This document shows positions 4,879 through 26,458 of a DNA stretch of 41,530 nt, piece after piece. The DNA comes from Verrucomicrobiota bacterium (GTDB taxonomy: Bacteria; Verrucomicrobiota; Verrucomicrobiia; Limisphaerales; CAIQOK01): assembly GCA_031423695.1 (NCBI GenBank), contig JANPGB010000120.1, positions 1-41,530 of the forward strand, given 5' to 3'. The number at the start of each line of letters is the position of its first letter. Positions within the stretch are counted from its first letter, which is position 1. The notes beneath the pieces were generated by a model. That model was given only the letters and a program-made list of their open reading frames with translations, was not told the origin of the DNA and did not search any database. The translations under genes and the position numbers were made by a program.

Positions 4879-5741
4879 TCCGCCCGCGCACCGATTCGCA
4901 CCAGTGGGCCGGCGCTTTGCGCGTCCATCATGGGCGTTGTGTCAACTCGTCGGATGCGAGTGGATGAAAGGAGATACGGCCACATTGGCAACAAACCGGG
5001 CGGGCCAAACAGGATCTGTGACCGGCGAAGCGCGTGAAAGCAGAAGGCGGAATGAATCTGGAAGTTAAGCCGATTAAAAAGGAATGGCTGGCGTGGGCGT
5101 ATTTACCAACTGATCACTATCACAGACCACTCTCTACAGACAACCCTCACTGACTTACGGTCCACTGACACTATCAACCAACATTCACGTCCACGTCAGC
5201 CACCTTGAACATAGGCTTGATTGACCAACCGTCAAGCGCGGCAATCACACTTCGCGAAATTCCAGGACTGACCCTGAAAAATGGGGACGGCTCCGTAGGC
5301 CATGCACTGAGCGGAGTGTGGTGCGGCCAGCAAAACCACCGAGGCATTCAGCCAGGGACATCCTGGAAGGAAAGGGGGTGAACACCATGAAAAACAAATG
5401 GCTGAGGGATTCGGCGAATTTTACCGGGACTTGTTCGCCCGCGTTCGAGAATCACATCAGCCAGTCTTTTTATACGCCAGTTTCACGGACTGTCAATAGC
5501 CCGATCACGGAGGGATGCCGAGGCCAAATCGAGGCGGCGGAATTCCGGAATGGGCTTTTCTTGACTCATGACTTTTCGGCTGACACTTTTCCGTGCATGA
5601 GTCCTGCAAACATCCCGCTCGAAAACTATCCCCGCTGCTGCAGGCAGAGCGACACCAGCACGACCCCATGGCTTGTCCAGGCGTCTCCGACGCGATGAGC
5701 CTCAGACTTCCACTCCCCAAACTGACCTTGAAACCCAGCCC

Positions 5742-6728
5742 ATGAAGCCGCCCAAAGTCAGTGTCTGCATCCCCACCTACAACTACGCGCGCTTTTTGCC
5801 CGAGGCGATCGAATCCATTCTGCAACAGGACTTCACGGATTTTGAACTGCTGATCATCGACGACTGTTCCAAGGACAATACGGCCGAGGTGGTCCAAGAA
5901 TATGCGGCAAAAGATGCGCGCATCCGTTTCAGCGTCAATTCGCCGAATGTCGGCATGGTGAACAATTGGAACTTGTGCCTGCGCGAAGCGAGGGGGGAGT
6001 TCATCAAGTTTGTGTTTGGCGATGACCTGCTGACCACCCCAGACGCCTTGCGGAAAATGCTGGCGCCCCTGCTTGCGGACCCGTCCATCAGCCTGGTGGC
6101 GACCGCGCGCAACCTGATTGATCCGGAGTCCAAGGTTATGCGCACCCGGTCCAGTTTCGGAAAAACCACGGTCATCGCCGGCGATGCGGTGATCCGCCGC
6201 TGCCTACTGGAGCAAAAAAATCTGATCGGCGAACCCACGGTGGTCCTGTTCCGCAAAAAGGACGCGGCGCGCGGATTCAACAAGGACTATCGCCAGATCG
6301 TGGATTTGGAAATGTGGTATCACCTGTTGGAAAATGGACAGCTCGCTTATCTAAATGAGCCGCTCTGCGCGTTTCGCTGCCACCCGGACCAGCAGACGGA
6401 GCACAACAGCCGATCCAACGCCACGCTGGATGACACCACCCTCTTGTTGAATGAGTATTTGAAGAAGCCGTATCTGCATTTCAGCGGCGTGGGACGGAAG
6501 TTGATCACGTACGACTTTTGCTATCAGGTCTGGAAAACTTACCGGAAGAATAAACTCAGCGAGGAACACGCCATGGCGACCATCAACAAAGCCTGCGGCT
6601 TCACCCGCTTCCGGCTGTTTCTGCCGTTGTATAAAATCATCCGGCCGATTCGGAAACTCATCCGGCACCTCGCCCGCCGGATGGGCACTGCGGAGGCCAG
6701 TTTTGAGGAGGCGGATCCCGCCGCCTAA
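5742..6728 (+). CDS. GT2 family glycosyltransferase
   Basis: VSVCIPTYN..IIDDCSKD..NWN..FGDD..DLEMW; ATG 5742 preferred over the upstream ORF start at 5673. Confidence 0.92.
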   Translation: MKPPKVSVCIPTYNYARFLPEAIESILQQDFTDFELLIIDDCSKDNTAEVVQEYAAKDARIRFSVNSPNVGMVNNWNLCLREARGEFIKFVFGDDLLTTPDALRKMLAPLLADPSISLVATARNLIDPESKVMRTRSSFGKTTVIAGDAVIRRCLLEQKNLIGEPTVVLFRKKDAARGFNKDYRQIVDLEMWYHLLENGQLAYLNEPLCAFRCHPDQQTEHNSRSNATLDDTTLLLNEYLKKPYLHFSGVGRKLITYDFCYQVWKTYRKNKLSEEHAMATINKACGFTRFRLFLPLYKIIRPIRKLIRHLARRMGTAEASFEEADPAA

Positions 6729-7717
6729 GCCCGCTTGTCGCTCGGCTCACCGGCGCCTTCACCCCGGTCGGTACGATTGATCTTTGCCAGAATGTGATTC
6801 AGAAAGACGGGCTGGAGGTGCTGGCGCAACTGATCAAAGCAGCGGTAATCCCCCGCCCGGAACTCGTGCCATTGGCCCTTGGCTTTGTGCTTGCTGTGAA
6901 AGGCGAAACAACATGAGGTGATGCCTCCCGGCGCGATTTGCTGGATGTCCTGGGTGGCGGGAATGGTCTTCGCCGGAAACCAAGTCCGCCAAATGACCAG
7001 GCTGTCTTCATCCTTGAGATGGGAGGCGATGATCGAGAGCGCATGCGGAGTGGTGAACAAGTCATCATCATCCAGAAACATGATCCACCCTTCGGAGACA
7101 CAGTCCATCATGTCATTGACGAAGAGATTATAGGGATGCGATCCGCCGGTGCTGCCCCGGACCACCTTCACCAGATCAGCGGCCGGCAGATTGTATTTTT
7201 TCAGATAATTGTACGTCTCCTCATTTTCATAGCTGACCAAGTGCCGGAATTTCTTGTACGTCTGCCCCGCGATCGAATTGCGGTTCTCGGAAAAAAATCG
7301 CGCCCGCAAGTTGGTCCGGGTCAGGATATTGATCAACGGGGCGGACGCCTCCGGCGGCGACGGAACATCAGCGCTGACAGATTCCAGATACTGTTCGAGC
7401 TGCCCCAAATTCCTCAAATATGTTTCACAGCGCGGGCCCGAAATCCGGCCCTCTGCCGAACCAAACGTCAACCAATGTTTCCGGGCGGCTCGCTTGGTGG
7501 TGATTCCGAGTTGCCTGAGATCGGGATAGAAGTTCAAATAAAACTTCCAGTCAAACCCCTCAAGCAAGCGGGCCTCTCTTTTCCGTTCCGACTCCTGCCC
7601 GGTGTCAGGCGGGGTAGCGGTCGGCCGGTCCTCGGACTTCACCGGCGACCCGCGCCATCCCGCCCACCATTTTTCCAACAAGCAACGCAACCGCATAACC
7701 CCGGAATCATGCAACAA
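6725..7717 (-). CDS. GT-A fold glycosyltransferase with N-terminal FDWxFY..YPDL..HW..G..EGR module (start uncertain)
   Basis: LINILTRT, WIMFLDDDD (DxD), GDY motifs; N-terminal module FDWKFYLNFYPDL..ARKHWLTFGSAEGR. Confidence 0.75.
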   Translation of the reverse strand: MLHDSGVMRLRCLLEKWWAGWRGSPVKSEDRPTATPPDTGQESERKREARLLEGFDWKFYLNFYPDLRQLGITTKRAARKHWLTFGSAEGRISGPRCETYLRNLGQLEQYLESVSADVPSPPEASAPLINILTRTNLRARFFSENRNSIAGQTYKKFRHLVSYENEETYNYLKKYNLPAADLVKVVRGSTGGSHPYNLFVNDMMDCVSEGWIMFLDDDDLFTTPHALSIIASHLKDEDSLVIWRTWFPAKTIPATQDIQQIAPGGITSCCFAFHSKHKAKGQWHEFRAGDYRCFDQLRQHLQPVFLNHILAKINRTDRGEGAGEPSDKRA

Positions 7718-7807
7718 GCGCCAGGCTCAAACAATTCAATACACTTTTGAATTCCCAATTTATCCGCCGGCCATTAACGTCAGCAAAACGATGCACCCAC
7801 CCTTGCC

Positions 7808-9007
7808 ATGAAGATCCTCCACTTTGCCTCCCACTTTTCATTGTTGTCCGAAACATTCATTTACGACGAAGTTTTGTCGCTGGAAAAGGCATACCCTCAT
7901 TCCAACGCCGTTTTGACCATGGAGCGTCACCTGGAAACAGAGCGGCCGTTTCACCGCGTGCTCGTGCTGCGCAAAAGCCCCTCGTTTGCGCAAAATGTCC
8001 ACCGGCGCTACCTAAAACATATCAAAGGCGTCCGGATACCCCGACACATGTTCCCGCTGTGCTCCTACCTCGACAAACACCTGGACTCGTTCGACCTCGT
8101 TCAGGCTCACTTTGGGTGGAATGCCGTCACCCTGTGGCAGGCCCTCAAACTGTTGGGCCGGGAAAAGCAAAAACCGATCCTCATCCGATGCCAAGGGACG
8201 GACATCAATTCAAAGCCCCTCCTGGAACCCGAGTACAGAAAGCAATTGTTGGAAATGGCGGGTGCCGACAACGTGCTGTTGAGCACCCTTTCAGAATGCA
8301 TGAAACAAAAAATGCTCAAACTGGGAATCGCTCCGACCCGGATCCATCCTGTCCCCAATGCTTTCAACAGTTCCTTTCTGGCCCATCGCAAGCAGCGTTT
8401 CTTTAAGCCAGGCGATTGCCTGAAGCTGATCAACACAGCCAGATTCATACAATGGAAGGGGCAAAGCTACCTGGTCAATGCATTCGCCCGATTCGTCCGC
8501 CAAGTGTATCACAAATCCGTCCTCACCCTCATCGGCGCGGGGGAAACCCTGGATTCCATCAGACAACTGGCCGAGCAGGAAGGGGTCGCCGACAATATCC
8601 GGTTCCTCGGTGCCGTTCCTCACCCGGAGATTGCGCGCCATCTTTCTGAAAGTGATTTGTACATTCAGCCATCCATCATTGATCCGGATACTTTCCAAGA
8701 AGAAGGCCTGCCGATCGCTGTGCTCGAGGCCCTAGCCGTCGGCCTGCCTTTGGTAGTCACCCGGACCGGCGGAATGCCCGAGATTGTAGGCGAGGACAAC
8801 GCCTTTGCGCGGATCATTCCCGACCGGGACTCCGAGGCCATGTACCGCGCGCTGAAAGATATGTTCGAAACAGGAACCTGCTTCCAGGACACCTCGGCCT
8901 ATTCTCAAAAACGACTCGCCTTCTTTACCCCCGAAAAACAATTGCAGGATTTACAATCGGCTTACGCCAAAATCCTGCCGGCGGGACGATCCTCCGCCGC
9001 AGCCTGA
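7808..9007 (+). CDS. GT4 glycosyltransferase (WcaL-like)
   Basis: SETFI, AHFG, KGQ, EEGLPIAVLEALAVGLPLVVTRTGGMPE (ExxxxxxxE). Confidence 0.9.
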   Translation: MKILHFASHFSLLSETFIYDEVLSLEKAYPHSNAVLTMERHLETERPFHRVLVLRKSPSFAQNVHRRYLKHIKGVRIPRHMFPLCSYLDKHLDSFDLVQAHFGWNAVTLWQALKLLGREKQKPILIRCQGTDINSKPLLEPEYRKQLLEMAGADNVLLSTLSECMKQKMLKLGIAPTRIHPVPNAFNSSFLAHRKQRFFKPGDCLKLINTARFIQWKGQSYLVNAFARFVRQVYHKSVLTLIGAGETLDSIRQLAEQEGVADNIRFLGAVPHPEIARHLSESDLYIQPSIIDPDTFQEEGLPIAVLEALAVGLPLVVTRTGGMPEIVGEDNAFARIIPDRDSEAMYRALKDMFETGTCFQDTSAYSQKRLAFFTPEKQLQDLQSAYAKILPAGRSSAAA

Positions 9008-9039
9008 AACGGGTGCCGCCAGCACTGTCGACCAGCCAG

Positions 9040-10047
9040 TCACAATCCACAAAACCGCTTGAGCCGGTCAAACCTTCCTTGCCGCGACGGTCCCGCCGCC
9101 GCCGGTGGATACTTCGCATCCAAGACCACCACCTCACCCTTGGCCAGCGCGCCCAAGAAATCCGCCCGCAGCCGTTCGCCGGCGGGTTTAATTTCCCGGG
9201 CGATTTTTTGCGCGGCCAGCCAGCCTTCCTTTGAAACACCCCATCTTGCGGAATCCACGAGCTGGTCGGCGCTGAGAGTCTCCGCTGGAAACACCCGCGG
9301 CCAGCCCAGCGCCAACGCCTGCCGGGTCACCTTGTCTCCGCCCACGATGGAGTCCACCGCCAAAACCGGCACCCCGCCTTTAAGTGCAAAAACCAGGCCA
9401 TGCAGCCGGTTGGTGATGACCAGGTCAACCTTCTGAACGAGCGAAAAAAATTCCGCCGGATTGTGAATGTTGGTCGTGTTTCTGGAGCGCGGCCATTTCG
9501 TATCCAGATCAAGCCGCGCCCAGCCCAGGCGTGTAAGAGCCGCGTGGATCATCTCAATTGTTTCCTTGTGCCGTTGGCGTTCGCCGTACTCCCCTTGCTC
9601 ACCGATCAGGCATAGCCCCACCGTCGGCACCGTCTCGACCGGCGTGAAAAAGCACAAGTCCGGACGGGACTGACGGTCTGAATCCCTTTCCAACAGCGGG
9701 GTAAACGGATTCCAGCTCCTCACCGGTTCAATCATCGTGGTATTGATTCCGATCCGGCAGCAGTGCGAAAACTTCCGAAGATCAATTCCGTTTCGGGCGA
9801 ACAGCTCGGGCCAGCAGGGCCCACAAATAAAAACCAGATGCGTGTAACTTTTCGGCCTTAATTCCGCGGGCGCCAGCGACCCTGGAATATCGTTCCGCAC
9901 CTCTTTCATGAATGCGCAGAGGTCATAAGCCATCCCCAATTCCCGGAGACAATCGATCACGTAATTCAGGCAACCGATGTCGCCGACCGTCGAAAAGTGA
10001 CCGAGCAACAAAGCTTTTCGCGGAACGCCTTTGGCCACCTCCTTCAT
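9040..10047 (-). CDS. Polysaccharide pyruvyl transferase family protein
   Basis: N-terminal GHFSTVGD, RPDL, and the family signature VITNRLHGLVFALKGGVP..DKV. Confidence 0.75.
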   Translation of the reverse strand: MKEVAKGVPRKALLLGHFSTVGDIGCLNYVIDCLRELGMAYDLCAFMKEVRNDIPGSLAPAELRPKSYTHLVFICGPCWPELFARNGIDLRKFSHCCRIGINTTMIEPVRSWNPFTPLLERDSDRQSRPDLCFFTPVETVPTVGLCLIGEQGEYGERQRHKETIEMIHAALTRLGWARLDLDTKWPRSRNTTNIHNPAEFFSLVQKVDLVITNRLHGLVFALKGGVPVLAVDSIVGGDKVTRQALALGWPRVFPAETLSADQLVDSARWGVSKEGWLAAQKIAREIKPAGERLRADFLGALAKGEVVVLDAKYPPAAAGPSRQGRFDRLKRFCGL

Positions 10048-10085: not shown

Positions 10086-11375
10086 CTAGTTCAAAGCCAC
10101 ACCGCGCCGGATGTACGTCGGCACATCCAGGTCCTCGCCCTTGTGGATCGTCGGCTCGCTCTGGTCGAACCGGCCCTTGGAAACAATCTCCAGCGGCAGG
10201 GTGCCCTGGCTCATCTTGGCGTGGGATTTTCGCGACCTGGATGCGCCCGGGTTCTTGCCGGCAAACATCTCGCGCGCGGCTTCCGGGGAGATTTCCGGCG
10301 GCGGCGGAATGATGCGCGATTGCGGACGCACGCTGGTTTCCTTTTCCAGCAGCGAATCGGACTCGCCCGCATCGTCGGTCGGAACTTTTTTGGAAGCCGC
10401 CGCCGCGCGTCGCGTCACCACCATTGTGATGGCCAGCCGCTCACGGAAACTTTCCTCAATCGCCGCGCCCATGATCACCTGCGCCTGCGGGCACTGGCCG
10501 TTGATCTGTTCCATGACCCGGTTCACCTCGGCCATCGTCAGATCCAGTCCACCCGTCACGCTCACCAGCACCGCCTCGGATTCGGAAAGGGCTTTTCCGC
10601 CGTCCAGCATCGGATGGGCGAACAATTGTTCCACCGCCTCCCGCGCGCGCGCCGGTCCCGTCGCCGAGGCGGTCGCGAAACAACTTTCCCCGTGCCGGTC
10701 TCGCAGCAACCCGCACAGGTCGGCAAAATGAATCTCAATCAGCCCCTTGCGCGCGAGCAGTTGCCAGACACTGTTGACCCCTTCGGCCAGCAGCCCGCCG
10801 GTGGCCTTGAACATCTCCACGACGCTCGTGTTCTCATCAATCAACTGGAACAATTTCTGGTTCGGCAGGCAGATCACGCCGTCGGCCTCGGCCTTGAGCT
10901 GTTCCAAGCCGCGCCGCGCCAGTTGCTGCCGGCGGTTGCCCTCGCACACGAACGGCAGCGTCACAAACGCCAGCACCAGCGCCCCCGCCTCCTTGGCCGC
11001 CCGCGCCAATACCGGACTGATGCCCGTGCCCGCGCCACCGCCCAGTCCAGCCACGATGAACACCGCCGTCGCGCCCGCGCAGGCCTCCTTGAGCGTCGGA
11101 AAAAACTCCGCCGCCGCCGCCCCGCCGCGCTCGGGATCGCCGCCGGTGCCCAGCCCGCGCAGCAATTTCGTCTCGACGGAAATTTTTTCTCCCACCGTCG
11201 AGCGCGCGAGCGATTCCGCGTCGGCGCTGATCGCCACCAGCGACGCGCCCGCCAGCGGGCTGCGCGCGATTTGCTCCAGCATCGCGATGCCGCCGCTGCC
11301 AACACCGAAAATCTTCACCGAGAGCGGACGCGTCGCGGCGGACGCGTCGCTTTCCAATTGCTGGTTCGTTTCCAT
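10086..11375 (-). CDS. ftsZ: Cell division protein FtsZ with divergent GTPase motifs
   Basis: GLGTGGDPE.G, AGLGGGAGTG, LPF.CEG.RR, C-terminal peptide EDLDVPTYIRR; follows ftsA. Confidence 0.95.
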   Translation of the reverse strand: METNQQLESDASAATRPLSVKIFGVGSGGIAMLEQIARSPLAGASLVAISADAESLARSTVGEKISVETKLLRGLGTGGDPERGGAAAAEFFPTLKEACAGATAVFIVAGLGGGAGTGISPVLARAAKEAGALVLAFVTLPFVCEGNRRQQLARRGLEQLKAEADGVICLPNQKLFQLIDENTSVVEMFKATGGLLAEGVNSVWQLLARKGLIEIHFADLCGLLRDRHGESCFATASATGPARAREAVEQLFAHPMLDGGKALSESEAVLVSVTGGLDLTMAEVNRVMEQINGQCPQAQVIMGAAIEESFRERLAITMVVTRRAAAASKKVPTDDAGESDSLLEKETSVRPQSRIIPPPPEISPEAAREMFAGKNPGASRSRKSHAKMSQGTLPLEIVSKGRFDQSEPTIHKGEDLDVPTYIRRGVALN

Positions 11376-11387
11376 AAAAGTGCTTTC

Positions 11388-12611
11388 TCAACCGCGACCG
11401 AGGATCTGTTTGATGGTGTTCCCGATGTCCCCCGCCAGCGATTTCCGCCCCGTCCGCTTGCGCTGCTGGTTGGACCCGACCTTCACCAGCCCGATGGCGG
11501 CGGCGAACTCCGGCTGATCCAGCGCGGACTTCAAACCGCTGACGGAATTCGTCTGCCCGATGCTTGCCGGCATCTGCAACACCCGCTCCGCCAGTTGCGC
11601 GATCTGCGGAATCCGCGCCCCGCCGCCGCAGAGAAAAATCCCGGCGCGCAGATAATCCAGCACACAGGCCTGCTCCAGGTCCTGCGCGATGAGCTGGAAA
11701 ATCTCCTCCAGCCGCAGCCCCATGATGCGGCGCAGATTTTCCACGCTCACCGTCTTCTGCGGCAGGCCGAACTCGTTGGGGATCGCGACGGTCGGGCCGG
11801 CGGCGGCCCGACTTGCCAGCGCAGAGCCGTGTTCGCATTTCAACTGCTCGGCCCGGCCCAGCGGAACTTTCAGTCCGTACGCCAGATCGTTGGAAACATG
11901 GTCACCGCCCACCGCCAACACGCCGATGTGCTTGATGACGCCCTTGGAATACACCACGTACTCCGTCGTGCCGCCGCCGATGTCGATCACCAGCGCGCCC
12001 AACTCCTTCTGCTCATTGGTGAGCAGCGCGAGCGACGCGGCGAGACCGTTGAAAACAATTTCGTCCACCTCCAACTGCAAGCCCTTGACCGCGCGCACGG
12101 AATTTTGGAGCCGGTTGAAATTCCCCTGGATCACATGCATGTCCACCTCCACGCGCGAGCCGAGCATCCCGACGGGATTGGGAATGCCGTCCTGGCCGTC
12201 CACCAAAAAATGCTGGCGGACCGCGTGAATGACGTGGTTCTCCGGCGAGCGGTTGATGGCCTTGGCGTTTTTCACCACGTCCTGCACGTCCTCCTCGGAA
12301 ATTTCCCGGTCGGCGGAGACAATCTGGTGTACGCCCCGGTTGTTGCAGCCGCGCACATGCGCGCCGGTCACGCCCAGATAGACGCTGCGGATTTCGACGT
12401 CGGCCATGTGCTCGGCCTCGACAATGGCGTTGCGCACGTCCTCCTCCGCCACCGGCGCGTCGCAGATTTCGCCCTTGCGCACGCCGCGCGAACGGGCCTG
12501 CCCTAGCCCGACGATGTTCAGTTCGCCCTCGGCGTTCATCTCGCCAACGACGGCGCACACTTTCGACGTGCCGATTTCCAGGCCGACGATCACATTCGAC
12601 GAATCAAACAT
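11388..12611 (-). CDS. ftsA: Cell division protein FtsA (alternative start 12626)
   Basis: GLEIGTSKV, DIGGGTT, GGGARI actin-like motifs; C-terminal amphipathic helix. Confidence 0.96.
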   Translation of the reverse strand: MFDSSNVIVGLEIGTSKVCAVVGEMNAEGELNIVGLGQARSRGVRKGEICDAPVAEEDVRNAIVEAEHMADVEIRSVYLGVTGAHVRGCNNRGVHQIVSADREISEEDVQDVVKNAKAINRSPENHVIHAVRQHFLVDGQDGIPNPVGMLGSRVEVDMHVIQGNFNRLQNSVRAVKGLQLEVDEIVFNGLAASLALLTNEQKELGALVIDIGGGTTEYVVYSKGVIKHIGVLAVGGDHVSNDLAYGLKVPLGRAEQLKCEHGSALASRAAAGPTVAIPNEFGLPQKTVSVENLRRIMGLRLEEIFQLIAQDLEQACVLDYLRAGIFLCGGGARIPQIAQLAERVLQMPASIGQTNSVSGLKSALDQPEFAAAIGLVKVGSNQQRKRTGRKSLAGDIGNTIKQILGRG

Positions 12612-12618
12612 TTTTCGA

Positions 12619-13581
12619 TTAAACATTTCTTCTCCTTGCTTTGGCAGGTTTGAGATTTTTGGGAACAACGGGCGCGGCCGTGCCGGCTTCGAGCAGACGC
12701 AGCGGCGTGTAATCGTTCACCGCCAGATCCAGCGTCGCTATGCCCTTGCGCTCCCGCAGGCATTCATCATAGATGCGCCGCCAGCGGGTGAGTTGCCGCT
12801 CGAAATCGTCCGCCGCAAACGTCACTTCACTCCCCTGCGCCGTGGTGACCACGAGCACCTGCGGCGCGCTGACGTCAATCCGCTTCAAATCCACCAGGCC
12901 CGCCATGGGCGACTGCTCGAATTTTTCAATCAGCTTCAAGGCGGACAGCGCCGGGGCGAAATCCAGCTTGCGACCCGTCTGCAACCCGGCGGTGTTGAGG
13001 CCGGCGATCACCGGGTATTGATCCTGCCCCTGCCCGAGCGGCACGGCGCGGTCGCGCGGGTCGAGCGGCTGCAACACAAACCCCTCCGCGTCCAGTTGAA
13101 AAATCTGCTGTTCGATCCCGCCGCCGTCGCGCGGATGCAACACGTTGACCTGGGCCACCGGTTCGCGCTCCGCCACCCGGAGCCGCAAGGTCCCCGGCAG
13201 GATGCGCTCGACTGACACGGCCCGAATCATCGGCACCATTTCCAAGTCATGCTTCACGCGCGCAAGATCCAGCGCGAGCAGGTTCTGCCCCGCCCGGACG
13301 CCGCTCCAGCGCCGCAATTGTTCGGGGGCAATCACCCCGTCGGTCTGCACCTCGATCAATTGGATGGCGAACGACTTGTTGTCGTACACCAGTTGGTTCA
13401 ACGTCCACTCGCCAAGCCGCCATAAAACAAAAAGTCCGAGCAAGGTTCCGCCGATCACGCCAAGCGAAACCACCGCCAGCCGCGTGCGCGCCGCGCGCAC
13501 CACCTTGGAACGCACCTTCACATCCAGCACGCTCTGCCGGTGCCACAACCGCCGGTTTTTATATTTACGTTGGAACCACAT
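12619..13581 (-). CDS. ftsQ: Cell division protein FtsQ/DivIB
   Basis: Single TM, POTRA domain (V.VERILPGTL.L.V.EREPVA), located between ddl and ftsA. Confidence 0.88.
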   Translation of the reverse strand: MWFQRKYKNRRLWHRQSVLDVKVRSKVVRAARTRLAVVSLGVIGGTLLGLFVLWRLGEWTLNQLVYDNKSFAIQLIEVQTDGVIAPEQLRRWSGVRAGQNLLALDLARVKHDLEMVPMIRAVSVERILPGTLRLRVAEREPVAQVNVLHPRDGGGIEQQIFQLDAEGFVLQPLDPRDRAVPLGQGQDQYPVIAGLNTAGLQTGRKLDFAPALSALKLIEKFEQSPMAGLVDLKRIDVSAPQVLVVTTAQGSEVTFAADDFERQLTRWRRIYDECLRERKGIATLDLAVNDYTPLRLLEAGTAAPVVPKNLKPAKARRRNV

Positions 13582-13644
13582 GACTCAATTAAAATTCAAA
13601 ATTGCTGCAGGAGATCGCATAAATTGGGCGTTCGTTTCGCATTT

Positions 13645-14568
13645 TTAATTTTTGACTTTAAATTTTTCATTCCGCCCCAGCGCCAGTTCGATCATCCGCT
13701 GGCAAAGCTGCTCGTAGCTGATCCCCGCCGCCGCCGCCGCTTTCGGCAGCAGGCTCGTCGGCGTCATGCCCGGCAGCGTGTTCACTTCCAGCACCACCGG
13801 CTCGCCGTTCGCCCGCACCATCACATCCACGCGCGAATAATCGCGGCCGCCCACCGCGCGAAACGCCCCCAGCGCTGCCGCCTGAATCCGCGCCGTCGTG
13901 GCGTCATCAAATTCCGCCGGACAAAAATATTCCGTGTTCCCGGGCGTGTACTTGTTGCGGTAATCGTAGCTGCCGGACTTGGGCCGCACCTCGACCACCG
14001 GCAACGCCGCCCCGTCCAAAATGCCCACCGTGGTTTCGCGCCCGACAATTTTTTCTTCAACCAAAAGTTCGGAGCCATGCCGGGAAGCTTCGCGCAGCGC
14101 ATCGCTCCACTCGGCGACGCGCTCGACAAATTGCAGCCCCACGCTCGAACCCTGCCGCACCGGCTTCACCACCAGCGGCGGCTGCCAGCCCATAGGCCAG
14201 GGCGTCTTCTCGGAATCCACCACTAGAAATTTTGCCGTCGGCACGTCGGTTTCAACGCAGCGCTGCTTGGTCAAAACCTTGTCGAACGCAATCCGACTCG
14301 CCTCGGCGTCGCAACCGGTGTAGGGCACACCCAGCTTTTCAAGCTGCTGCTGCACCGTGCCGTCCTCGCCATACGTTCCGTGCAACGCCAGAAAAACCGC
14401 GTCCGTCCCCGGCGGCAGCGTGAATGTGCCGTCCTGCGGATCCACTTCGGTCACCATATGGCCCAGCGACCGCAGCGCCGTCGCCACACCCGCGCCGCTG
14501 TTCAACGACACCTCGCGCTCGGCGCTCGGCCCGCCCAGCATCACCACGATGTTCAGTAGCTTTGACAT
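13645..14568 (-). CDS. ddl: D-alanine--D-alanine ligase
   Basis: GGPSAEREVSL, LHGTYGEDG, KPVRQGSSVG, YDYRNKY, LEVNTLPGMT all present. Confidence 0.97.
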   Translation of the reverse strand: MSKLLNIVVMLGGPSAEREVSLNSGAGVATALRSLGHMVTEVDPQDGTFTLPPGTDAVFLALHGTYGEDGTVQQQLEKLGVPYTGCDAEASRIAFDKVLTKQRCVETDVPTAKFLVVDSEKTPWPMGWQPPLVVKPVRQGSSVGLQFVERVAEWSDALREASRHGSELLVEEKIVGRETTVGILDGAALPVVEVRPKSGSYDYRNKYTPGNTEYFCPAEFDDATTARIQAAALGAFRAVGGRDYSRVDVMVRANGEPVVLEVNTLPGMTPTSLLPKAAAAAGISYEQLCQRMIELALGRNEKFKVKN

Positions 14569-14576
14569 GGTTGCCC

Positions 14577-15527
14577 TCAATCCTCGCCGATAATTTCCAC
14601 TTCCGTATGCAGGTCGATGCCGCGCTCTGCTTTCACCCGCTCCTTCAGAATCTCCATCAACGCAAGGACATCCCGCGCTGTCGCCGCGCCGTCGTTCACA
14701 ATAAAATTTCCGTGCTCCGCCGAAACCACCGCGCCGCCCACGCGCGTGCCCTTCAAGCCCAACTCATCGATCAACCGACCCGCCGAATGTCCCGCCGGAT
14801 TTTTGAACGCACAACCCGCGCTCGACATGGCAGGCTGCGACGCCCAGCGCTTCTTGCTGTAGTCGTTCATGCGCTGCTCGATGGCTTCGCGAGCATCTGG
14901 CCGGCCTTTGAGCACCGCGCCGAGGGCGATGTGGGTTTTACAAGTCGCGCAGCACCGATATTCCACTGCCATTTCCTGCGGTGTCAGTTCACGGACGTTG
15001 CCGTTGAAATCCATCAGTCGCGCCGACTCGACGATGTCGAATGTCGCGCCGCTCATCGCGCCCGCGTTCATCCGCAGCGCGCCGCCCACGCTGCCGGGGA
15101 TGCCTTCCAGAAATTCCAGCCCGGCCAATCCGTGGCGCTTCGCCTCAACGGAGACATGCTTCAACTTCGCGCCGGCTCCGCAGCGCAAGTGTTCCCCATT
15201 GATTGCAACCTGGCTGAACACTGCATGCGCAAGGCAGATCACCACGCCACGAAAACCGCCGTCCCTCACCACTAGATTGGAGCCGCGTCCCAGCACAAAG
15301 AATTTCAGGCCGCAGGTGCCGCAATATTTCAAAACCGCCGCCAGGTCCGCCTCTGAAGCCGGCTCCAGGTAAAGATCTGCCCGGCCGCCCACGCGGAGCG
15401 TCGTGCGCTTCGCCAGCGGTTCGTCACAACGGATCGCCGTCGCGCCCGAGACCAGGCCCGCCAGGGCTTCCGCGTGATTTTTGTCTGCGTGCATCGGCGC
15501 TTCTAAAATGGCGGGTGACGAAGTCAT
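14577..15527 (-). CDS. murB: UDP-N-acetylmuramate dehydrogenase (stand-alone, no MurC moiety)
   Basis: TTLRVGG, GRGSNL, GIPGSVGGALRMNAGA, SAGCAFKNP, HGNFIVN; 316 aa. Confidence 0.96.
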   Translation of the reverse strand: MTSSPAILEAPMHADKNHAEALAGLVSGATAIRCDEPLAKRTTLRVGGRADLYLEPASEADLAAVLKYCGTCGLKFFVLGRGSNLVVRDGGFRGVVICLAHAVFSQVAINGEHLRCGAGAKLKHVSVEAKRHGLAGLEFLEGIPGSVGGALRMNAGAMSGATFDIVESARLMDFNGNVRELTPQEMAVEYRCCATCKTHIALGAVLKGRPDAREAIEQRMNDYSKKRWASQPAMSSAGCAFKNPAGHSAGRLIDELGLKGTRVGGAVVSAEHGNFIVNDGAATARDVLALMEILKERVKAERGIDLHTEVEIIGED

Positions 15528-16717
15528 GCGCCAACGGGCCGCTCACCCGCAAACGGCGCACCGGTCTCCGAACCGGCTCGTTCCGGATCCCGCGCAGGTT
15601 GCCGCCAGTTCGGAAACCGGCGTTCCTCGGCCGCAACTGTCCGCAAAATGATTTCGGCAATTTCTTCCGCCGCCTTCGGGGCGTGCCACTTTGCCAGGGC
15701 GGCCTGCATTTCATCGCGGACGACTGCGTTTGAAATCAATTCCGCAACCATGTTCGCGAGCCGTTCCGGTGTCGCGTCTTTTTGTTCCAGCAACCGTGCC
15801 GCGCCGGTTTCCTCAAAGGCGCGGGCGTTGTAAAACTGATGGTTGTCCATCGCCGCCGGAAACGGCACCAGGACGGCCGGCACGCGCATGGCCGCGAGTT
15901 CCGCCAGCGAGGACGCGCCGGCCCGGCTGATGGCCACGGTGGCCGCACCAAGCGCGACCACCATTTCCGAAAAGAACGGATGCACCACCGCGCGCAGATT
16001 TTTTTCCGCGTAGGCCCGACGGACTCGCTCGGCGTCCGCGGCGCCGGTGAAATGCAGGAACTGCCAGTCGGTTTTCAACAGCGGCAGCGAGTTGACGAGG
16101 AGATTGTTGATGCCGGTCGCGCCCTGACTGCCGCCCACGGCCAGCAGAACGGGCCGCAGCGGATCCAGTCCGAGCGCGGCGCGGCACGCGGCGGCTGCGC
16201 GCGGCTGAAATTCGGGGCGGACGGGAGTGCCGGTCTGGCTGACATGACGGGCGTGGAGCCGTGCGGCGGCCTGCGCAAACCCGACGAACGCTTCCGGCAC
16301 GAAGCGCGACAGCCAGCGGTTGGCGCGGCCGGGGATGGTGTTCGACTCGTGCAGAAAAGTTTTTGCGCCCAGATGCTTCGCCGCGAGCACGGGCGGCGCG
16401 CTGGTAAACCCGCCCATGGCCAGCACGGCTTGCGGCCGGTGTTGTCGAAAATATTTCCGGGCCGCAAAATAAGAACGAATGAAGCCGCGCAGAAAGGCGA
16501 TTTTGTTTCCACCACTCAGACCCACGGCGGGCAGGGTGATGATTTCCATGCCGGAAACCTTTTGCGCGGCCTGCTGGTCCACGTCCTTGGGTGAGACCAG
16601 CAGCGTGACTGCGCAGCCGCGCCGGACGAGTTGTTCCGCCACGGCCAGGCCCGGGAAAAAATGGCCGCCCGTGCCGCCACAGGCGATGGCAATTCTCGTT
16701 GCGGTGTGCGGCGTCAT
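15524..16717 (-). CDS. murG: MurG lipid II GlcNAc transferase with repeat-derived C-terminal tail
   Basis: GGTGGH, HESN, GGSQGA, RAGASSLAE, HQ..NA. Confidence 0.96.
   Translation of the reverse strand: MTPHTATRIAIACGGTGGHFFPGLAVAEQLVRRGCAVTLLVSPKDVDQQAAQKVSGMEIITLPAVGLSGGNKIAFLRGFIRSYFAARKYFRQHRPQAVLAMGGFTSAPPVLAAKHLGAKTFLHESNTIPGRANRWLSRFVPEAFVGFAQAAARLHARHVSQTGTPVRPEFQPRAAAACRAALGLDPLRPVLLAVGGSQGATGINNLLVNSLPLLKTDWQFLHFTGAADAERVRRAYAEKNLRAVVHPFFSEMVVALGAATVAISRAGASSLAELAAMRVPAVLVPFPAAMDNHQFYNARAFEETGAARLLEQKDATPERLANMVAELISNAVVRDEMQAALAKWHAPKAAEEIAEIILRTVAAEERRFPNWRQPARDPERAGSETGAPFAGERPVGA
15555..15626. repeat. Inverted pair of REP-like palindromes inside the murG 3' end
   Basis: ggcgcaccggtctccgaaccggc (15555-15577) and inverted near-copy gccagttcggaaaccggcgttcc (15604-15626); read in frame as ERRFPNW..RAGSETGAP. 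Confidence 0.7.
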
Positions 16718-17859
16718 GCGTTTTGAGGTTCGGCGGAATCAAGACCGGCAGTCAGGCCGTTTTCCAGCGCACGGCCATTCCGCGCGACGTTGAGGAGCAG
16801 CCCGACACAGATGAGCATCGCGAGCAGGTTGGAGCCGCCGTAGCTGATGAACGGCAGCGGGAGCCCTTTGTTCGGCAGCGCGTTGGTGACGACCCCGATG
16901 TTGATCATGGCCTGGAGTCCGATGAGGAAGGTGAGGCCGGCCGCGAGCAACGTGCTGAAAGTGTCGCGCGCGTGGCTGGCAATGTAAACGCCGCAGCCGA
17001 GGATGGCGACAAAGGCTCCGCAGATCAGCAGCGTGGCGATCAGGCCCAATTCCTCTCCGATAATGGCGAGGATGAAATCCGTGTGATGCTCGGGAACCCA
17101 GCCGAGCTTTTGGCGGCCGTTGCCCAAACCCAGCCCGGTCCAACCCCCAGCCCCCAGCGCGAGCCGGGCCTGGTAGGCCTGCAACCCCTTGTCACGCCGC
17201 GTCTCTTCCAGGTGCAGCCACGAATAGACGCGTTCCGAGCGCATCGGGTTGTGATAGATGAAGGCGCTGATGGCGATGAGGCCCGCGATGACGGGCGGCA
17301 AAAAATATTTTAACTGGATGCCGGCGACGAGCAGCATCACGCAGCTCACCGAGGCGAGCAGCAGGGCGTTGCCCACGTCGGGCTCGATGAAGATCAGGCC
17401 GAGCGTCAGGCCGATGAACAAGCCGGGAAAAAGAATCCCGCGTTTCCAGGTGCGCATCTGCCGTTGAAAGTGCTCGCCGTACCACGCGAGCGCCAGAATG
17501 AGCGCGATCTTGGCGAACTCCGAGGGCTGCAGACTGACGCCATGGAAGCTGAACCAGCGGCTGGCTCCGTTGATGCGTTTGCCGATGTGCGGCACGACCA
17601 CGAGCGCCAGCAACACCAAAGTGAAGCCGAGCAGCGGCCAGGCGAATTTCTTGAGCAGCCGACGGTCGAGCAACGCGGCGGTCAGACACAACCCCAGGCC
17701 GAGGGCGCACCAGATCAACTGCATCACCAGGTAATGCGCGCCAATCTCACTGTGCGTGCGGCGGTCCCAGGATTCCATGCTCGAGCTGTAAAGCATCACC
17801 ATGCCCAGCGCGAGGAGGGCGGCGACACAAAACACCAGAACTGTAACGGCCACTTTCAT
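16714..17859 (-). CDS. ftsW: SEDS family peptidoglycan glycosyltransferase FtsW
   Basis: NGASRW, LQPSEFAK, EPD.G, PEHHTDFI..IIGEELG, PNKGLPLPFISYGGS. Confidence 0.96.
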   Translation of the reverse strand: MKVAVTVLVFCVAALLALGMVMLYSSSMESWDRRTHSEIGAHYLVMQLIWCALGLGLCLTAALLDRRLLKKFAWPLLGFTLVLLALVVVPHIGKRINGASRWFSFHGVSLQPSEFAKIALILALAWYGEHFQRQMRTWKRGILFPGLFIGLTLGLIFIEPDVGNALLLASVSCVMLLVAGIQLKYFLPPVIAGLIAISAFIYHNPMRSERVYSWLHLEETRRDKGLQAYQARLALGAGGWTGLGLGNGRQKLGWVPEHHTDFILAIIGEELGLIATLLICGAFVAILGCGVYIASHARDTFSTLLAAGLTFLIGLQAMINIGVVTNALPNKGLPLPFISYGGSNLLAMLICVGLLLNVARNGRALENGLTAGLDSAEPQNA

Positions 17860-17868
17860 GCGCAAACC

Positions 17869-17899
17869 CGGACGCCGGGCCGAGGGCGCCCGGCGTCCG
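17869..17899. repeat. Perfect 12-bp GC-rich hairpin between LysM gene and ftsW
   Basis: cggacgccgggc-cgagggc-gcccggcgtccg; no clear long U-tract. Confidence 0.75.
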
Positions 17900-17909
17900 C
17901 GACCAACAC

Positions 17910-18653
17910 TTACAAAGGTTTCGGAGTGGAGGTTGCCGGCGCGGGCGCGGTCGTTTCAGGAACCACCGGAGCCGTCACCGGGACGATTGTCTTGGCCGGA
18001 ATTTTCAACTTGTCCCCGACTTTGATCTTGTCGGTGGTGAGACTGTTGGCGGAGCGCAGCGCCTTGACGGACACGCCATAGTGCTTGGCGATGGTCGTCA
18101 GAGTATCACCGGACTTGACCTTGTGAATCTGCTCGCCGGTCGCGGCGGAATCTGCCGGGGCGCTGACGGAAGAACCTGCCGTCGGGGTGGCGGTCGCTGC
18201 CGGGAGATGAAGGGGCTGGCCGATTTTCAGTTTCTTAGGATCCACCCCGGGGTTGGCATCTTGCACCGACTTGGTGCTGACGCCATGATCCTTGGCGATT
18301 TTTTCAAAGGTGTCTCCTTTGACAACGACATACTCCTGGCTGGGCGCGACGACCGGCACCACGGGTTCCGGCGCCGGTGGAACGTAGGCGGTGACGTTGG
18401 TGCCCGGAGCGTTGGTGCTGACGGCTGAAACCAGGTTGGTGTCAAACGTCGGCATGGTCATCGTGTTGGTCTCGGCTGGCGGGACTTCCGGCTCGCTCGG
18501 TTTGCGGCAGCCAAAGCCGATGATCAGCAAAGCCATCAGCGCGATGAAATTGACGGCGAACACCAGCGTGACCGCCGTGCGCACGCGGACACGGCTTTGA
18601 TTTTTCTGCTCCACCGCGGGGCTTTCGGGATTCAATGGACTCGGATTATTCAT
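17910..18653 (-). CDS. Membrane-anchored double-LysM protein (alternative start 18716)
   Basis: TM segment ending GFGC; two LysM domains (YVVVKGDT..KIAK.HGVS..; HKVKSGDTL..IAKHYGVS..L..AN); Pro/Thr-rich linkers. Confidence 0.9.
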   Translation of the reverse strand: MNNPSPLNPESPAVEQKNQSRVRVRTAVTLVFAVNFIALMALLIIGFGCRKPSEPEVPPAETNTMTMPTFDTNLVSAVSTNAPGTNVTAYVPPAPEPVVPVVAPSQEYVVVKGDTFEKIAKDHGVSTKSVQDANPGVDPKKLKIGQPLHLPAATATPTAGSSVSAPADSAATGEQIHKVKSGDTLTTIAKHYGVSVKALRSANSLTTDKIKVGDKLKIPAKTIVPVTAPVVPETTAPAPATSTPKPL

Positions 18654-18838
18654 TTGATTCTGACGCGCAACGGCGTCCTTTCTGTGAGGTTGATTTAATT
18701 GGTTCGTTCGCTCCATGGTTTTCCCTCAAAAAACCACGAGGCGATAAATTGTTTTGTTACGGCGTTTTCGTTTCTGTTTTTGGACCGGTTCAAACCGCCA
18801 CCGCTTTCACCATGCATCTTGGGGCAGGCCGGCAGCCA

Positions 18839-19050
18839 ACCCCAACTAATTGATTTCACGCATCGGCAAATTTTTCCACCACGTTGCTGAAAGATTTGAA
18901 ATTGCTCAAAGCTTGAATCAACTGGTGAAAGCAAAAACGAACGCCGACCACCGCAGAATATTTCACTGCGACAGTTGTTTCTAACAACGAACGCGCGGCC
19001 GTGCAAGCGGTAAAACGACCGATTGCCGCGCTATTTTTTTTGGCGTCAAA
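18839..19050 (-). pseudogene. murD: Frameshifted 3' relic of murD
   Basis: Frame A KKNSAAIGRFTACTAARSLLETT..VVG, shift near 18940, frame B LLSPVDSSFEQFQIFQQRGGKICRCVKSISWG matches the MurD C-terminal LLSPACSSFDQF..Y..RG motif; sits in the canonical murD slot after mraY; AT-richer than neighbours. Confidence 0.8.
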
Positions 19051-19061
19051 TTCTTGCCTTG

Positions 19062-19085
19062 TCACGTTTCACCTTTCACGTTTCA
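19062..19085. repeat. 7-bp tandem repeat at the murD deletion junction
   Basis: tcacgtt-tcacctt-tcacgtt-tca. Confidence 0.6.
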
Positions 19086-19095
19086 GGATCGGGCC

Positions 19096-20280
19096 TCATC
19101 GAATCTTCAGTGTGCTCAACGCCACCACCGCACAAAGAATGCACAGGATGTAAAACCGCATCACCACCTGCGATTCATACCATCCCTGCTTCTCAAAATG
19201 GTGATGGATGGGGGCCATCAGAAACAGCCGCCGCCCCGTTCCGCTGCGCCGCCGCGTCCATTTGAACCAGCCCTTCTGCAAAATCACCGAGCCGGCCTCC
19301 ATCACGAACACCCCGCCGGCGATCACCAGCACCAGCGGTTGATGAATCAGCACCGCGGTGATGCCCAGCGCCCCGCCGAGCGCGAGCGAACCGGTGTCGC
19401 CCATGAACATCTGCGCCGGATGACAGTTGAACCACAGGAAGCCGAGACCCGCGCCGATCAGCGCCGCGCAAAATACCGTCAGCTCCCCCGCCCCGCTCAC
19501 GTAGGGAATCTGCAGATACGTCGCCGCCTTCACGTTGCCCGCCAGATACGTCAGCACCAGGAAAACAAACGAGACGATCAGCGTGCAGCCAATCGCGAGG
19601 CCGTCCAGACCGTCCGTCAAATTCACCGCGTTGGAACTGCCCACGATGGCGAGCATCGTCAGCAGCACGCCCAGACCGCCGCCGACGGCGATCGGATATT
19701 TGTAGAATGGCACCATCAACACGCTGACCAGATTGCTGACGAGCGCGTGTTTGAATTCCGGCAGATGCAGTTCGCTGCGCACCGGCAGCATCCACAAATA
19801 CAGCGCCACAAAAATCGCCAGCGAAAACTGCACCCAAAGCTTCACCCGTGGCGGCGTGCCGAGCCCGTTTTGCTGGGTGATCTTGGCGTAATCGTCATAG
19901 AAGCCCAGCGCCGCCAGCACGACCACCGAAAGCAGTGACAGTTGAATCAGCGTGTTCCACTGCGCCCACAGCAGCGTCGAGGCGTTCAGCGTCAGGATGA
20001 TCAAAATGCCCCCCATCGTCGGCGTGCCCTTCTTGCTGAGCAGGCGCGTCTTGAGGTCACCGGTTTGCTCGGCCACGTCCGAATACTCCTGCCCAAACTT
20101 CAGCTGTTTCAGCCAGCCGATCACCTTCGGTCCCAGCCAGAGACTCAGCAGCAGGGCCGTGACCGCCGCGCCTGCGCTGCGTACGGTGATGTACGTGAAC
20201 AGCCGCAGCGGCGACAACCGGCCGGCCCAATCCGTGCCCGCCGCCGACTTCAACAACCATTGGCTCAGGTAATAAAACAT
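19096..20280 (-). CDS. mraY: Phospho-N-acetylmuramoyl-pentapeptide transferase
   Basis: KKGTPTMGG, GFYDDY, NAVNLTDGLDGLA, FMGDTGSLALG, APIHHHFE. Confidence 0.97.
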   Translation of the reverse strand: MFYYLSQWLLKSAAGTDWAGRLSPLRLFTYITVRSAGAAVTALLLSLWLGPKVIGWLKQLKFGQEYSDVAEQTGDLKTRLLSKKGTPTMGGILIILTLNASTLLWAQWNTLIQLSLLSVVVLAALGFYDDYAKITQQNGLGTPPRVKLWVQFSLAIFVALYLWMLPVRSELHLPEFKHALVSNLVSVLMVPFYKYPIAVGGGLGVLLTMLAIVGSSNAVNLTDGLDGLAIGCTLIVSFVFLVLTYLAGNVKAATYLQIPYVSGAGELTVFCAALIGAGLGFLWFNCHPAQMFMGDTGSLALGGALGITAVLIHQPLVLVIAGGVFVMEAGSVILQKGWFKWTRRRSGTGRRLFLMAPIHHHFEKQGWYESQVVMRFYILCILCAVVALSTLKIR

Positions 20281-25824: not shown

Positions 25825-25838
25825 GCATCAGTTCTCCC

Positions 25839-26453
25839 TCACGCCGCCGACCCCTGCGAGACGGCCAGTTCGCTGCGCGTCTGCGTGTGCAACGCCGGTT
25901 TGAAATTCGTCTCCTGGCTGAATGTCCGGGCCGGCACCACTTCCACGTCGGCGTCATTCAAATCGTTGCGCACGACCTTGATGTTTTGCAGCGATAGCTC
26001 GCCCTGCACCACCGGCTTGTCAAAGCGTGGAATGGCCGGCTTGGCAGCGGATTTTTGTCCGCCCGACCACCGGGCCGGACTCAGTTTCTCCAGCATCACC
26101 CCGGCCCAGTCCAGAAAGATTTCCCACCGCTTCGGCTTGGCATTTTCCGGGGCGGCGCTGTGACGTGCGGCGACAAACGGCAGCCGTCTCGTCTCCTTCA
26201 TTTTCGCCGACAACTCCGGCAGGCGCTGGGTCTCCTTCAGGTTGGCCGCCGGAATGCGGGCAGCCCGCACCAGCGGCCTGGACAGCGGCTCCGTCACGGC
26301 CGGAGCCGGCTCTTTTTTCGCCGGCGGCGTGAACGGATTTTTGGATGAACCAAATTTCGGCAGATAATTCTTGCCGGGCATGTGGTAGCGGCTCGTGGAA
26401 TTTTTCAAGTCCACCAAAGTTTTCCCGTTGGTCAGTAATTGCATCAGGCTCAT
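25839..26453 (-). CDS. Hypothetical protein embedded between mraZ and rsmH
   Basis: 204-aa co-directional ORF with 5- and 14-nt gaps to neighbours; motifs LPKFGS.KNPF and QGELSL.NIKVVRNDL.DAD.E.V. Confidence 0.75.
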   Translation of the reverse strand: MSLMQLLTNGKTLVDLKNSTSRYHMPGKNYLPKFGSSKNPFTPPAKKEPAPAVTEPLSRPLVRAARIPAANLKETQRLPELSAKMKETRRLPFVAARHSAAPENAKPKRWEIFLDWAGVMLEKLSPARWSGGQKSAAKPAIPRFDKPVVQGELSLQNIKVVRNDLNDADVEVVPARTFSQETNFKPALHTQTRSELAVSQGSAA

Positions 26454-26458
26454 GGTTA

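Follow-up and report, generated by a model that had tools for sequence, protein, structure and literature searches.

The window analysed here, a 41,530-nt contig (JANPGB010000120.1, assembly GCA_031423695.1) of a Verrucomicrobiota bacterium of the order Limisphaerales, carries on its minus strand an ftsZ gene (10086–11375; ATG start, 429 amino acids) whose product has a rewritten GTPase site. GTP hydrolysis at the interface between the T7 loop and the nucleotide pocket drives the treadmilling of FtsZ, which is currently held to organise septal wall synthesis. In the FtsZ of the window, two of the three T7 residues equivalent to Escherichia coli N207, D209 and D212 are missing, as is the threonine of the γ-phosphate site, and these losses are shared by a sole-copy, constrained FtsZ across a large environmental clade. 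The protein is the single functional division FtsZ of the organism, and it represents a redesign of the whole lineage, not a dying gene. Strain decay is set aside because the gene is the only copy found, the ratio of non-synonymous to synonymous substitution rates (dN/dS) of its core equals that of ftsA, its fold is predicted with confidence and its replacement residues are near-invariant. As to its working, we favour with moderate confidence, and by analogy with mutants of other species, a nucleotide-binding, long-lived scaffold filament tethered by FtsA, in which GTP would be turned over very slowly, if at all.

Identity and altered motifs of the protein

Both FtsZ domains are recognised in the protein, PF00091 (8.5e-31; 108.1 bits, cut-off 33) and PF12327 (2.7e-18; 66.5 bits, cut-off 27). 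A profile search of the whole source genome (5.37 Mb in 688 contigs, 90.98% completeness, 6.93% contamination) gave one PF00091 match, which is the ftsZ of the window, and no PF13809 match. The check for a second ftsZ or for btubAB, which an earlier note made from the sequence alone had suggested, was thus run, and no second ftsZ, BtubA/B, Tubulin_2 or other FtsZ-like gene was found in this 90.98% complete genome. The best solved relative is Bacillus subtilis FtsZ (2vam, 5.8e-58), to which residues 18–322 align, gap-free to residue 223. E. coli residue numbers are taken to be those of B. subtilis minus one.

The alignment to 2vam and the DNA itself bear out all the motif readings of that note, that is, GGGAGTG, GLIEIHFAD, GSGGIAM, SAD, a retained D212 equivalent and an intact C-terminal peptide. 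The T4 tubulin signature (residues 112–118, nt 11022–11042) is GGGAGTG in place of the canonical GGGTGTG. Its A115 aligns to B. subtilis T109 and E. coli T108, the γ-phosphate threonine, which is present in 30 of 30 canonical FtsZs; with this change from Thr to Ala, the PROSITE signature PS00227, [SAG]GGTG[SAT]G (quoted in PMC1845146), is not matched. The T7 loop with the start of helix H8 (residues 211–219, nt 10719–10745) reads GLIEIHFAD, the canonical form being GLINLDFAD. Here E214 corresponds to E. coli N207, H216 to D209 and D219 to D212, and the canonical pattern of GxxNxD followed by D is broken at its first two positions (N to E, D to H) and kept at the third. In the T1 loop (residues 26–32, nt 11280–11300), GSGGIAM stands within GVGSGGIAML (canonical GVGGGGNNAV; GGGGNNA or GGAGGNA), and the T2 loop (residues 50–52, nt 11220–11228) is SAD in place of NTD, its Asp being kept. 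One further change, absent from the earlier note, lies in helix H7, where G193-G194 (nt 10794–10799) occupy the positions of B. subtilis D187 and N188; we take these to be the guanine-facing Asp and Asn, D187 presumably contacting the guanine.

Expressed in Staphylococcus aureus positions, the side chains of T109, N208, D210, N44 and N25 are gone, and D46, G72, R143 and D213 are kept. Also intact are T3 (GTGGDP), the T4 glycines, the T5 Glu and Arg, the T6 Asn and the H7 Phe. Behind the core, a disordered linker (residues 323–412, nt 10140–10409), in which the predicted local distance difference test score (pLDDT) is <50 over most of residues 326–404, leads to the conserved C-terminal peptide DLDVPTYIRRG, of the FtsA-binding type (residues 415–425, nt 10101–10133), which is near-identical in 28 of 28 relatives compared. 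When set against canonical FtsZ (TIGR00065; B. subtilis 2vam and 2rhj; S. aureus), the protein is alike in its two-domain fold, its place after ftsA, its linker and C-terminal peptide, its T3, T5 and T6 loops, the H7 Phe and the R143 and D213 equivalents, whereas it differs in the Glu-x-His of T7, the Ala of T4, the T1, T2 and H7 contacts of its genus and a TIGR00065 score below cut-off.

To describe where the changes fall, 30 canonical FtsZs (20 from other orders and 10 from the same order) were compared column by column with 14 members of the clade. There are 76 core columns conserved to at least 90% in the canonical set; 12 of these, mainly in T1, T2, T4 and T7, differ in half or more of the clade members. 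In the E. coli numbering assumed above, they are G20, N24, N43, A48, G61, D84, D96, T108, A112, N207, D209 and one column of the C-terminal domain. Judged from these sequences, the concentration of changes in the four loops exceeds chance.

Distribution, origin and selection of the changes

For the spread of each change, 8000 candidates from a 90%-identity protein collection were scored, 3753 of which had E ≤ 1e-60; the 120 best clusters (60–100% identical) were then read. Position 216 (D209) is His in 118 and Gln in two; position 214 (N207) is Glu in 110, Asp in nine and Gln in one; Ala occupies position 115 (T108) in 114. Position 219 (E. coli D212, S. aureus D213) holds Asp in 113 clusters and Glu in seven, and the C-terminal peptide is identical in 105. 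Other residues are kept to a similar degree: the E139 equivalent in 120, R143 in 118, D46 in 109, the T6 Asn (N166) in 117, the H7 Phe (F183) in 119, and T3 G79 and T4 G116 in all 120. SAD occurs at T2 in 11 clusters (NTD in 69), GSGGIA at T1 in four, and Gly at H7 position 193 (B. subtilis D187) in 13 (Asn in 90). The depth of the changes evidently differs, those of T7 and T4 being clade-wide and those of T1, T2 and H7 confined to the genus of the window and its near kin. As E-I-H is among the best conserved strings of the clade, the word degenerate, under which the earlier note had described the motifs, is misleading. Its suggestion of a clade-wide trait rather than strain decay held, both in these counts (His in 118 of 120, Glu or Asp in 119, Ala in 114) and in the dN/dS values given below.

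A wider circle was drawn from a library of 1.84 billion proteins, given without taxonomy, from which the 150 nearest 50%-identity representatives were taken; 148 of them aligned cleanly around T7. N-x-D is kept in 40 of the 148, and the position of the Asp holds Asp in 69, His in 18 and other residues in 61. The catalytic T7 loop is described as highly conserved in the sources that treat it (PMC8456036; bioRxiv 10.1101/677963). In this part of the FtsZ family it is unusually plastic, E-I-H being one stable outcome.

The order of the window was sampled with 41 genomes of 37 families, the source genome (G000) included. FtsZ was found in 40 of them, and not in G021, which is 83% complete; the motif table covers 39, G032 having been dropped with a 45-amino-acid fragment at a contig end. 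Three groups are seen: canonical FtsZs with NVD and GGGTGTG; x-I-H forms in G000–G004, G008, G030, G033, G038 and G040; and other departures (PLG, PAS, GLP, PVP, NLT and NIR). In all the ftsZ genes of relatives read in this sample, the reading frame is intact, with no internal stops. A class-level sample comprised 81 genomes, all with a match, the 30 best-scoring loci being read and the 51 weaker matches left out. Among these best 30 loci, the FtsZs of other orders have N-x-D and GGGTG[TGS]G in 20 of 20 cases, and four more genomes of the order to which the window belongs proved to be of the x-[IV]-H type, with EIH in G054, QIH in G091 and G074, and DVH in G114. As the motifs are canonical in the other orders, the change arose within the order of the window. 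A quick IQ-TREE tree of 65 FtsZ cores, which is a gene tree with the trait columns included and with four rows on long branches, has one branch with a Shimodaira–Hasegawa-like approximate likelihood ratio (SH-aLRT) support of 99 that sets 46 rows, made up of the canonical forms and every outgroup, apart from 19, which comprise all x-I-H forms and a few FtsZs that have diverged further; the end branches of G000 and G008 measure 0.032 and 0.12. This topology points to a single origin of the x-I-H state, which the canonical motifs of the other orders mark as derived.

Selection on the gene was estimated as Nei–Gojobori dN/dS of the FtsZ core, and ftsA was treated likewise in each genome pair. The values for core and ftsA are 0.074 and 0.077 for G000/G002, 0.092 and 0.081 for G000/G004, 0.059 and 0.049 for G002/G004, and 0.143 and 0.152 for G000/G003. 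In the three closest pairs the core, at 0.06–0.09, is therefore on par with ftsA (0.05–0.08 within the genus); the C-terminal linker gives 0.15–0.28. An AlphaFold2 model built from a 31-row alignment has a mean pLDDT of 73.4, with most core blocks at 80–96, the region of the nucleotide pocket at high confidence, and low values only at the N-terminus, in the linker and in the tail. The Foldseek matches listed for it are all FtsZ structures, with B. subtilis FtsZ 2rhj at the top (E 9e-36) and target-normalised template modelling (TM) scores of 0.83–0.90, and the predicted model has the FtsZ fold. The prediction of a complex of two copies (residues 15–325) with GTP and Mg yielded no verdict, its score being 0.00. 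A search for RNA sequencing runs that carry the gene listed none.

Within the order of the window, FtsZ departs further in some genomes. That of G013 is about 21% identical, with GRQSGSL at the position of the signature, and that of G037 is very divergent despite the presence of murE, murD and murC; together with G021, these genomes may represent later stages of FtsZ erosion. In a family of another order of the class (f47: G045, G056, G067, G076, G093, G099, G105 and G116), with small, near-complete genomes of 2.2–2.8 Mb, the FtsZ matches are very weak (E 1e-5 to 1e-12, about 22–27% identity over the N-terminal domain), and the match of G099 contains an in-frame TGA.

A proposed slow scaffold filament and competing explanations

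The roles of the replaced residues have been described for S. aureus FtsZ, in which T109 hydrogen-bonds the γ-phosphate mimic, N44 and D46 keep the waters that coordinate Mg, N25 forms a hydrogen bond to the nucleotide, and the side chain of N208 contacts D46 and Q48 of the next subunit and coordinates the K+ ion of T7 (PMC8936486). According to the same source, D210 swings and places the catalytic water, aided by D213 and G72, R143 supplies a positive charge and is credited with a part in catalysis in addition to assembly, and assembly is suppressed by each of D46A, R143Q, N208L, D210N and D213N (PMC8936486). For E. coli, an FtsZ-YFP-mts carrying T108A is reported to have a GTPase of almost zero and to form membrane rings with GTP that do not treadmill, subunit turnover being nearly nil (PMC5979038), and N207, D209 and D212 are said to be conserved throughout the FtsZs, changes to D209 or D212 severely impairing the GTPase (bioRxiv 10.1101/677963). 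From these mutant data of the two species we infer a slow GTPase and a lack of treadmilling for the FtsZ of the window. The T7 Asp and the γ-phosphate Thr are gone and the nucleotide-binding loops and polymer-interface residues are under selection, the combination by which a scaffold FtsZ, as the earlier note had called it, would be recognised. Laboratory mutants with a defective GTPase (E. coli T108A and D212A; S. aureus D210N and N208L) are hit at the same positions. Each of these mutants, as its source describes it, has one change, which inactivates the protein in vivo or blocks assembly, whereas the FtsZ of the window combines several in a naturally selected sole copy. The name ftsZ3, which the earlier note had applied to E. 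coli T108A, was not confirmed in the literature searched, where it denotes plant or B. subtilis alleles.

We propose that the composite active site between two subunits has been rewritten in a large uncultured clade of Verrucomicrobiota and then fixed by selection, Glu/Asp-Ile-His taking the place of Asn-x-Asp in T7 and Ala that of the γ-phosphate Thr, to which the genus has added its contact changes in T1, T2 and H7. Nucleotide binding and head-to-tail assembly would be retained through compensating substitutions on the two faces of the interface, and GTP would be hydrolysed very slowly or not at all. The product would be long-lived filaments of low turnover rather than fast treadmilling ones, anchored by FtsA through the conserved tail and serving as a scaffold for FtsQ, FtsW and FtsI. 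The change would have arisen in a lineage still possessing murC, murD and murE, as one element of a more general loosening of the division and cell-wall machinery of the order and not as a direct consequence of the loss of Mur ligases.

The tubulins offer a parallel. In the T7 loop of β-tubulin, Lys replaces the catalytic Glu, so the GTP at the N-site of α-tubulin stays unhydrolysed. This is a natural precedent within the superfamily for a substituted T7 catalytic residue that yields a stable, non-hydrolysing longitudinal interface; in tubulin, however, this is one of two alternating interfaces of a heterodimer, whereas in the FtsZ of the window it would be every interface of a homopolymer.

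Several points weigh against a hydrolysis-poor scaffold. The NCBIfam equivalog model for ftsZ, TIGR00065, scores the protein at 251 bits, below its cut-off of 295.2 (E 2.1e-74, residues 2–330), and a completeness of 91% in 688 contigs leaves room for an undetected second copy of ftsZ. As N208L or D210N singly blocks assembly in S. aureus, according to the source quoted above, the natural protein must carry compensating changes, and single mutants do not simply foretell its behaviour. Finally, a near-invariant Glu-x-His together with kept R143 and D213 fits selection for chemistry equally well as selection for contacts only.

The last point leads to a remodelled site that is catalytically competent, an explanation we regard as rather unlikely, though by no means negligible. 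Glu214 and His216 would form a carboxylate-histidine pair, or a new metal site, which positions or activates water; they would replace Asn/Asp and the K+ of T7, and turnover and treadmilling would persist, perhaps with another dependence on ions or pH. Such a pairing agrees with the closest set, in which an acidic residue or Gln stands at position 207 in every case of His at 209 (110 Glu, nine Asp and one Gln; His in 118 of 120), and with E-I-H being fixed whereas the T7 loops outside x-I-H take many forms (PLG, PAS, GLP, PVP, NLT). The retention of R143 (118 of 120), of D213 (113, plus seven Glu) and of T3 G79 and T4 G116 (all 120) speaks in the same direction, R143 being the residue credited with a catalytic role beyond assembly in S. 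aureus. R143, D213 and D46 are, however, also needed for assembly there, and their conservation does not demand catalysis (PMC8936486). The γ-phosphate Thr, moreover, is Ala in 114 of 120 clusters, and the same single change, as reported for E. coli, nearly abolishes the GTPase (PMC5979038). A catalytic His in the T7 loop of an FtsZ or tubulin did not turn up in the literature searched; to our knowledge there is no such protein.

Improbable, in our estimation, is a loss or change of canonical guanine-nucleotide binding specific to the genus, with assembly independent of nucleotide. It would account for the additional changes of the genus (the G20 equivalent to Ser, N24/25 to Ala, N43/44 to Ser, T44/45 to Ala, and D187/N188 of H7 to Gly-Gly), which are rare in the clade (of the 120 clusters, GSGGIA in 4, SAD in 11 and a Gly in place of D187 in 13) and include the equivalent of the nucleotide-bonding N25 of S. 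aureus (PMC8936486). The T3 loop GTGGDP, the T4 glycines, the T5 Glu and Arg, the T6 Asn and the H7 Phe are nevertheless all intact, the dN/dS of the core is as low as that of ftsA, and the pocket is modelled with high confidence.

Should the slow scaffold filament or a new catalytic solution be real, either would be of clear interest to specialists in cell division. The clade is a natural experiment on whether hydrolysis-driven turnover is needed for division and on whether a different catalytic solution is possible in the tubulin superfamily, and it may reveal the way in which bacterial cells divide when their FtsZ ring is slow or static.

Mur ligases, possible FtsZ erosion and the surroundings of the gene

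ftsZ is the final gene of the division and cell wall (dcw) cluster, in the canonical position after ftsQ and ftsA. The order on the minus strand is mraZ, a 204-amino-acid open reading frame (ORF), rsmH, ftsI, a SIMPL/DUF541 gene, murF, mraY, a LysM gene, ftsW, murG, murB, ddl, ftsQ, ftsA and ftsZ. ftsA (11388–12668; PF14450 and PF02491) lies directly upstream of ftsZ, with a gap of 12 nt; the rest of the cluster, from ftsQ to ftsI, was assigned with Pfam and occupies 12619–24344, and its head, formed by rsmH (mraW), the 204-amino-acid ORF and mraZ, 24892–26929 (PF01795 1.5e-102; PF02381 2.7e-12).

The earlier note had claimed an altered Mur pathway with which the FtsZ changes would co-occur, and the first part of the claim stood: murC, murD and murE were detected neither by profile searches of the source genome nor in the dcw cluster of the window. 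The Mur-ligase-type genes of this genome are three, namely MurF in the window (TIGR01143, 387 bits against a cut-off of 288.6), FolC, and Mpl on another contig (C119; locus L003, 988–2385, minus strand; TIGR01081, 478 bits against 388.7; on the murC model 307 against 335). Also present are murA, split over two contig ends, murB, ddl, mraY, murG, ftsW and ftsI. Mpl is the ligase that joins the ready-made tripeptide L-Ala-D-Glu-meso-diaminopimelate to UDP-MurNAc. This gene content suggests that the stem peptide of peptidoglycan is salvaged rather than built in this genome.

Within the 41 genomes of the order, MurE is found in 18, and MurD above cut-off in 21, plus three weak or partial matches. 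The murC model scores above cut-off in 12, four more genomes being counted from a second, fragmentary murC-type match at contig ends, and an Mpl-like match (about 290–325 bits on the murC model) is present in 40. All three ligases occur in 15 of the 41, and none of the three in 16, G000–G004 among them. Glutamate racemase (TIGR00067) was found in nine genomes, all with MurD, and neither in the source genome nor in any of the 16 genomes without MurE, MurD and MurC; it was rejected as a marker of stem-peptide salvage, because 7 of the 15 genomes that have the three ligases lack it too.

The usual places of two of the missing genes are occupied. A SIMPL/DUF541 gene (21676–22449, minus strand) lies between ftsI and murF, where murE usually is, and a gene with two LysM domains (17910–18716, minus strand) between mraY and ftsW, where murD usually is (both by Pfam). 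As G033 holds both murD and the LysM gene, the latter was rejected as a replacement of murD; it is an order-level insertion. The SIMPL gene, considered as a replacement of murE, is missing between ftsI and murF in G034. On its contig C2 (locus L078, 6465–8837, minus strand), G033 also has a 791-amino-acid ORF that spans the murC and murB matches, and several relatives have murC-type ORFs of 777–904 amino acids. The ORF of G033 resembles the murC-murB fusion that is described for Verrucomicrobium spinosum (PMC12283558).

The claimed link between the FtsZ change and the Mur loss fared less well than the loss itself. A mechanistic coupling of the two has the raw counts in its favour: among the 39 genomes with FtsZ read, the T7 Asp is kept in 11 with a complete Mur set and 6 with an incomplete one, and lost in 4 and 18, respectively, which leaves 10 discordant genomes. 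Likewise, the Asp is kept in 1 of the 15 genomes without MurE, MurD and MurC in which FtsZ was read, as against 11 of the 15 with all three. In the co-variation test that the earlier note had proposed, this raw co-occurrence is seen, but an independent-pairs comparison of T7 state with Mur set yields two well-supported contrasts (five on all branches), too few for a statistical test, on an FtsZ gene tree rather than a species tree and with genomes that are kin. Two genomes contradict the coupling directly. Synteny mapping shows that G033 has GLIDIHFSD and GGGAATG with the full Mur set on one contig (ftsI, murE, murF, mraY, murD, LysM, ftsW, murG, the murC-murB-type ORF, ddl, ftsQ, ftsA, ftsZ), and G034 has GLINVDFAD despite the same reduced layout as the window (ftsI-murF, mraY-LysM-ftsW, murG-murB). 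The earlier note had named altered residues in relatives with a complete murCDE set as the finding on which the link would fail, and G033 is such a relative. Because of these two, the T7 change is taken to be older than the loss of Mur ligases within the clade, a loss that has also taken place without it. We give little credence to the coupling; the tie between the two is at best loose, their co-occurrence in this genome being real.

A decay of ftsZ under relaxed selection toward its loss, as in Planctomycetota and Chlamydiota, would fit the failure to find FtsZ in the 83% complete G021, the roughly 21% identity of G013 in the same order, the N-x-D kept in only 40 of 148 nearest cleanly aligned representatives and the TIGR00065 score below cut-off, but is very hard to reconcile with a core dN/dS (0.06–0.09) equal to that of ftsA, intact frames in all relatives read, near-invariant replacement residues and modest branches in the clade (0.032 for G000, 0.12 for G008), and we consider it highly improbable. 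The comparison with the FtsZ-less division of those two phyla, as their descriptions give it (PMC12283558; PMC5147048), is instructive in that they belong to the same superphylum and the order of the window shows eroding ftsZ motifs and Mur ligases, whereas here ftsZ, ftsA, ftsQ, ftsW and ftsI have all been kept under constraint. Only tentatively, and as a possibility that we would not yet rely on, we suggest that a whole order of free-living Verrucomicrobiota may be an extant intermediate toward FtsZ-less division: the catalytic loop would be free to vary, one large clade would have settled on Glu-x-His with a hydrolysis-independent, non-treadmilling Z-scaffold as its only FtsZ, and de novo synthesis of the stem peptide would have been given up repeatedly, leaving Mpl and MurF only. 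If so, FtsZ treadmilling would not be a universal requirement of FtsZ-based division.

Published accounts draw a more canonical picture. The FtsZ of V. spinosum is described as canonical, with GGGTGSG (PMC1845146), and a 2025 survey presents Verrucomicrobiota as having highly conserved dcw genes (PMC12283558). The conserved canonical dcw set, as that survey portrays it, is revised by the present counts (MurE in 18 of 41 genomes, N-x-D in 40 of 148 representatives). Verrucomicrobial FtsZs have been placed among the most divergent and phylogenetically unstable ones (PMC9871819), in an article whose main text contains no occurrence of "T7 loop", "catalytic" or "GTPase activity". No description of the x-I-H state of T7 or of the loss of Mur ligases in Verrucomicrobiota was found in the literature searched, which covered few subscription journals and no supplements.

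Two minor features border the genes discussed. The ORF of 204 amino acids between mraZ and rsmH (25839–26453, minus strand) matches no Pfam family and is out of the ordinary at the head of a dcw cluster. Downstream of ftsZ, a surface-polysaccharide block (5673–10047) abuts the division cluster; it includes a polysaccharide pyruvyl transferase-like gene (9040–10047, minus strand), a GT4 glycosyltransferase (7808–9007, plus strand) and a GT2 glycosyltransferase (5673–6728, plus strand).

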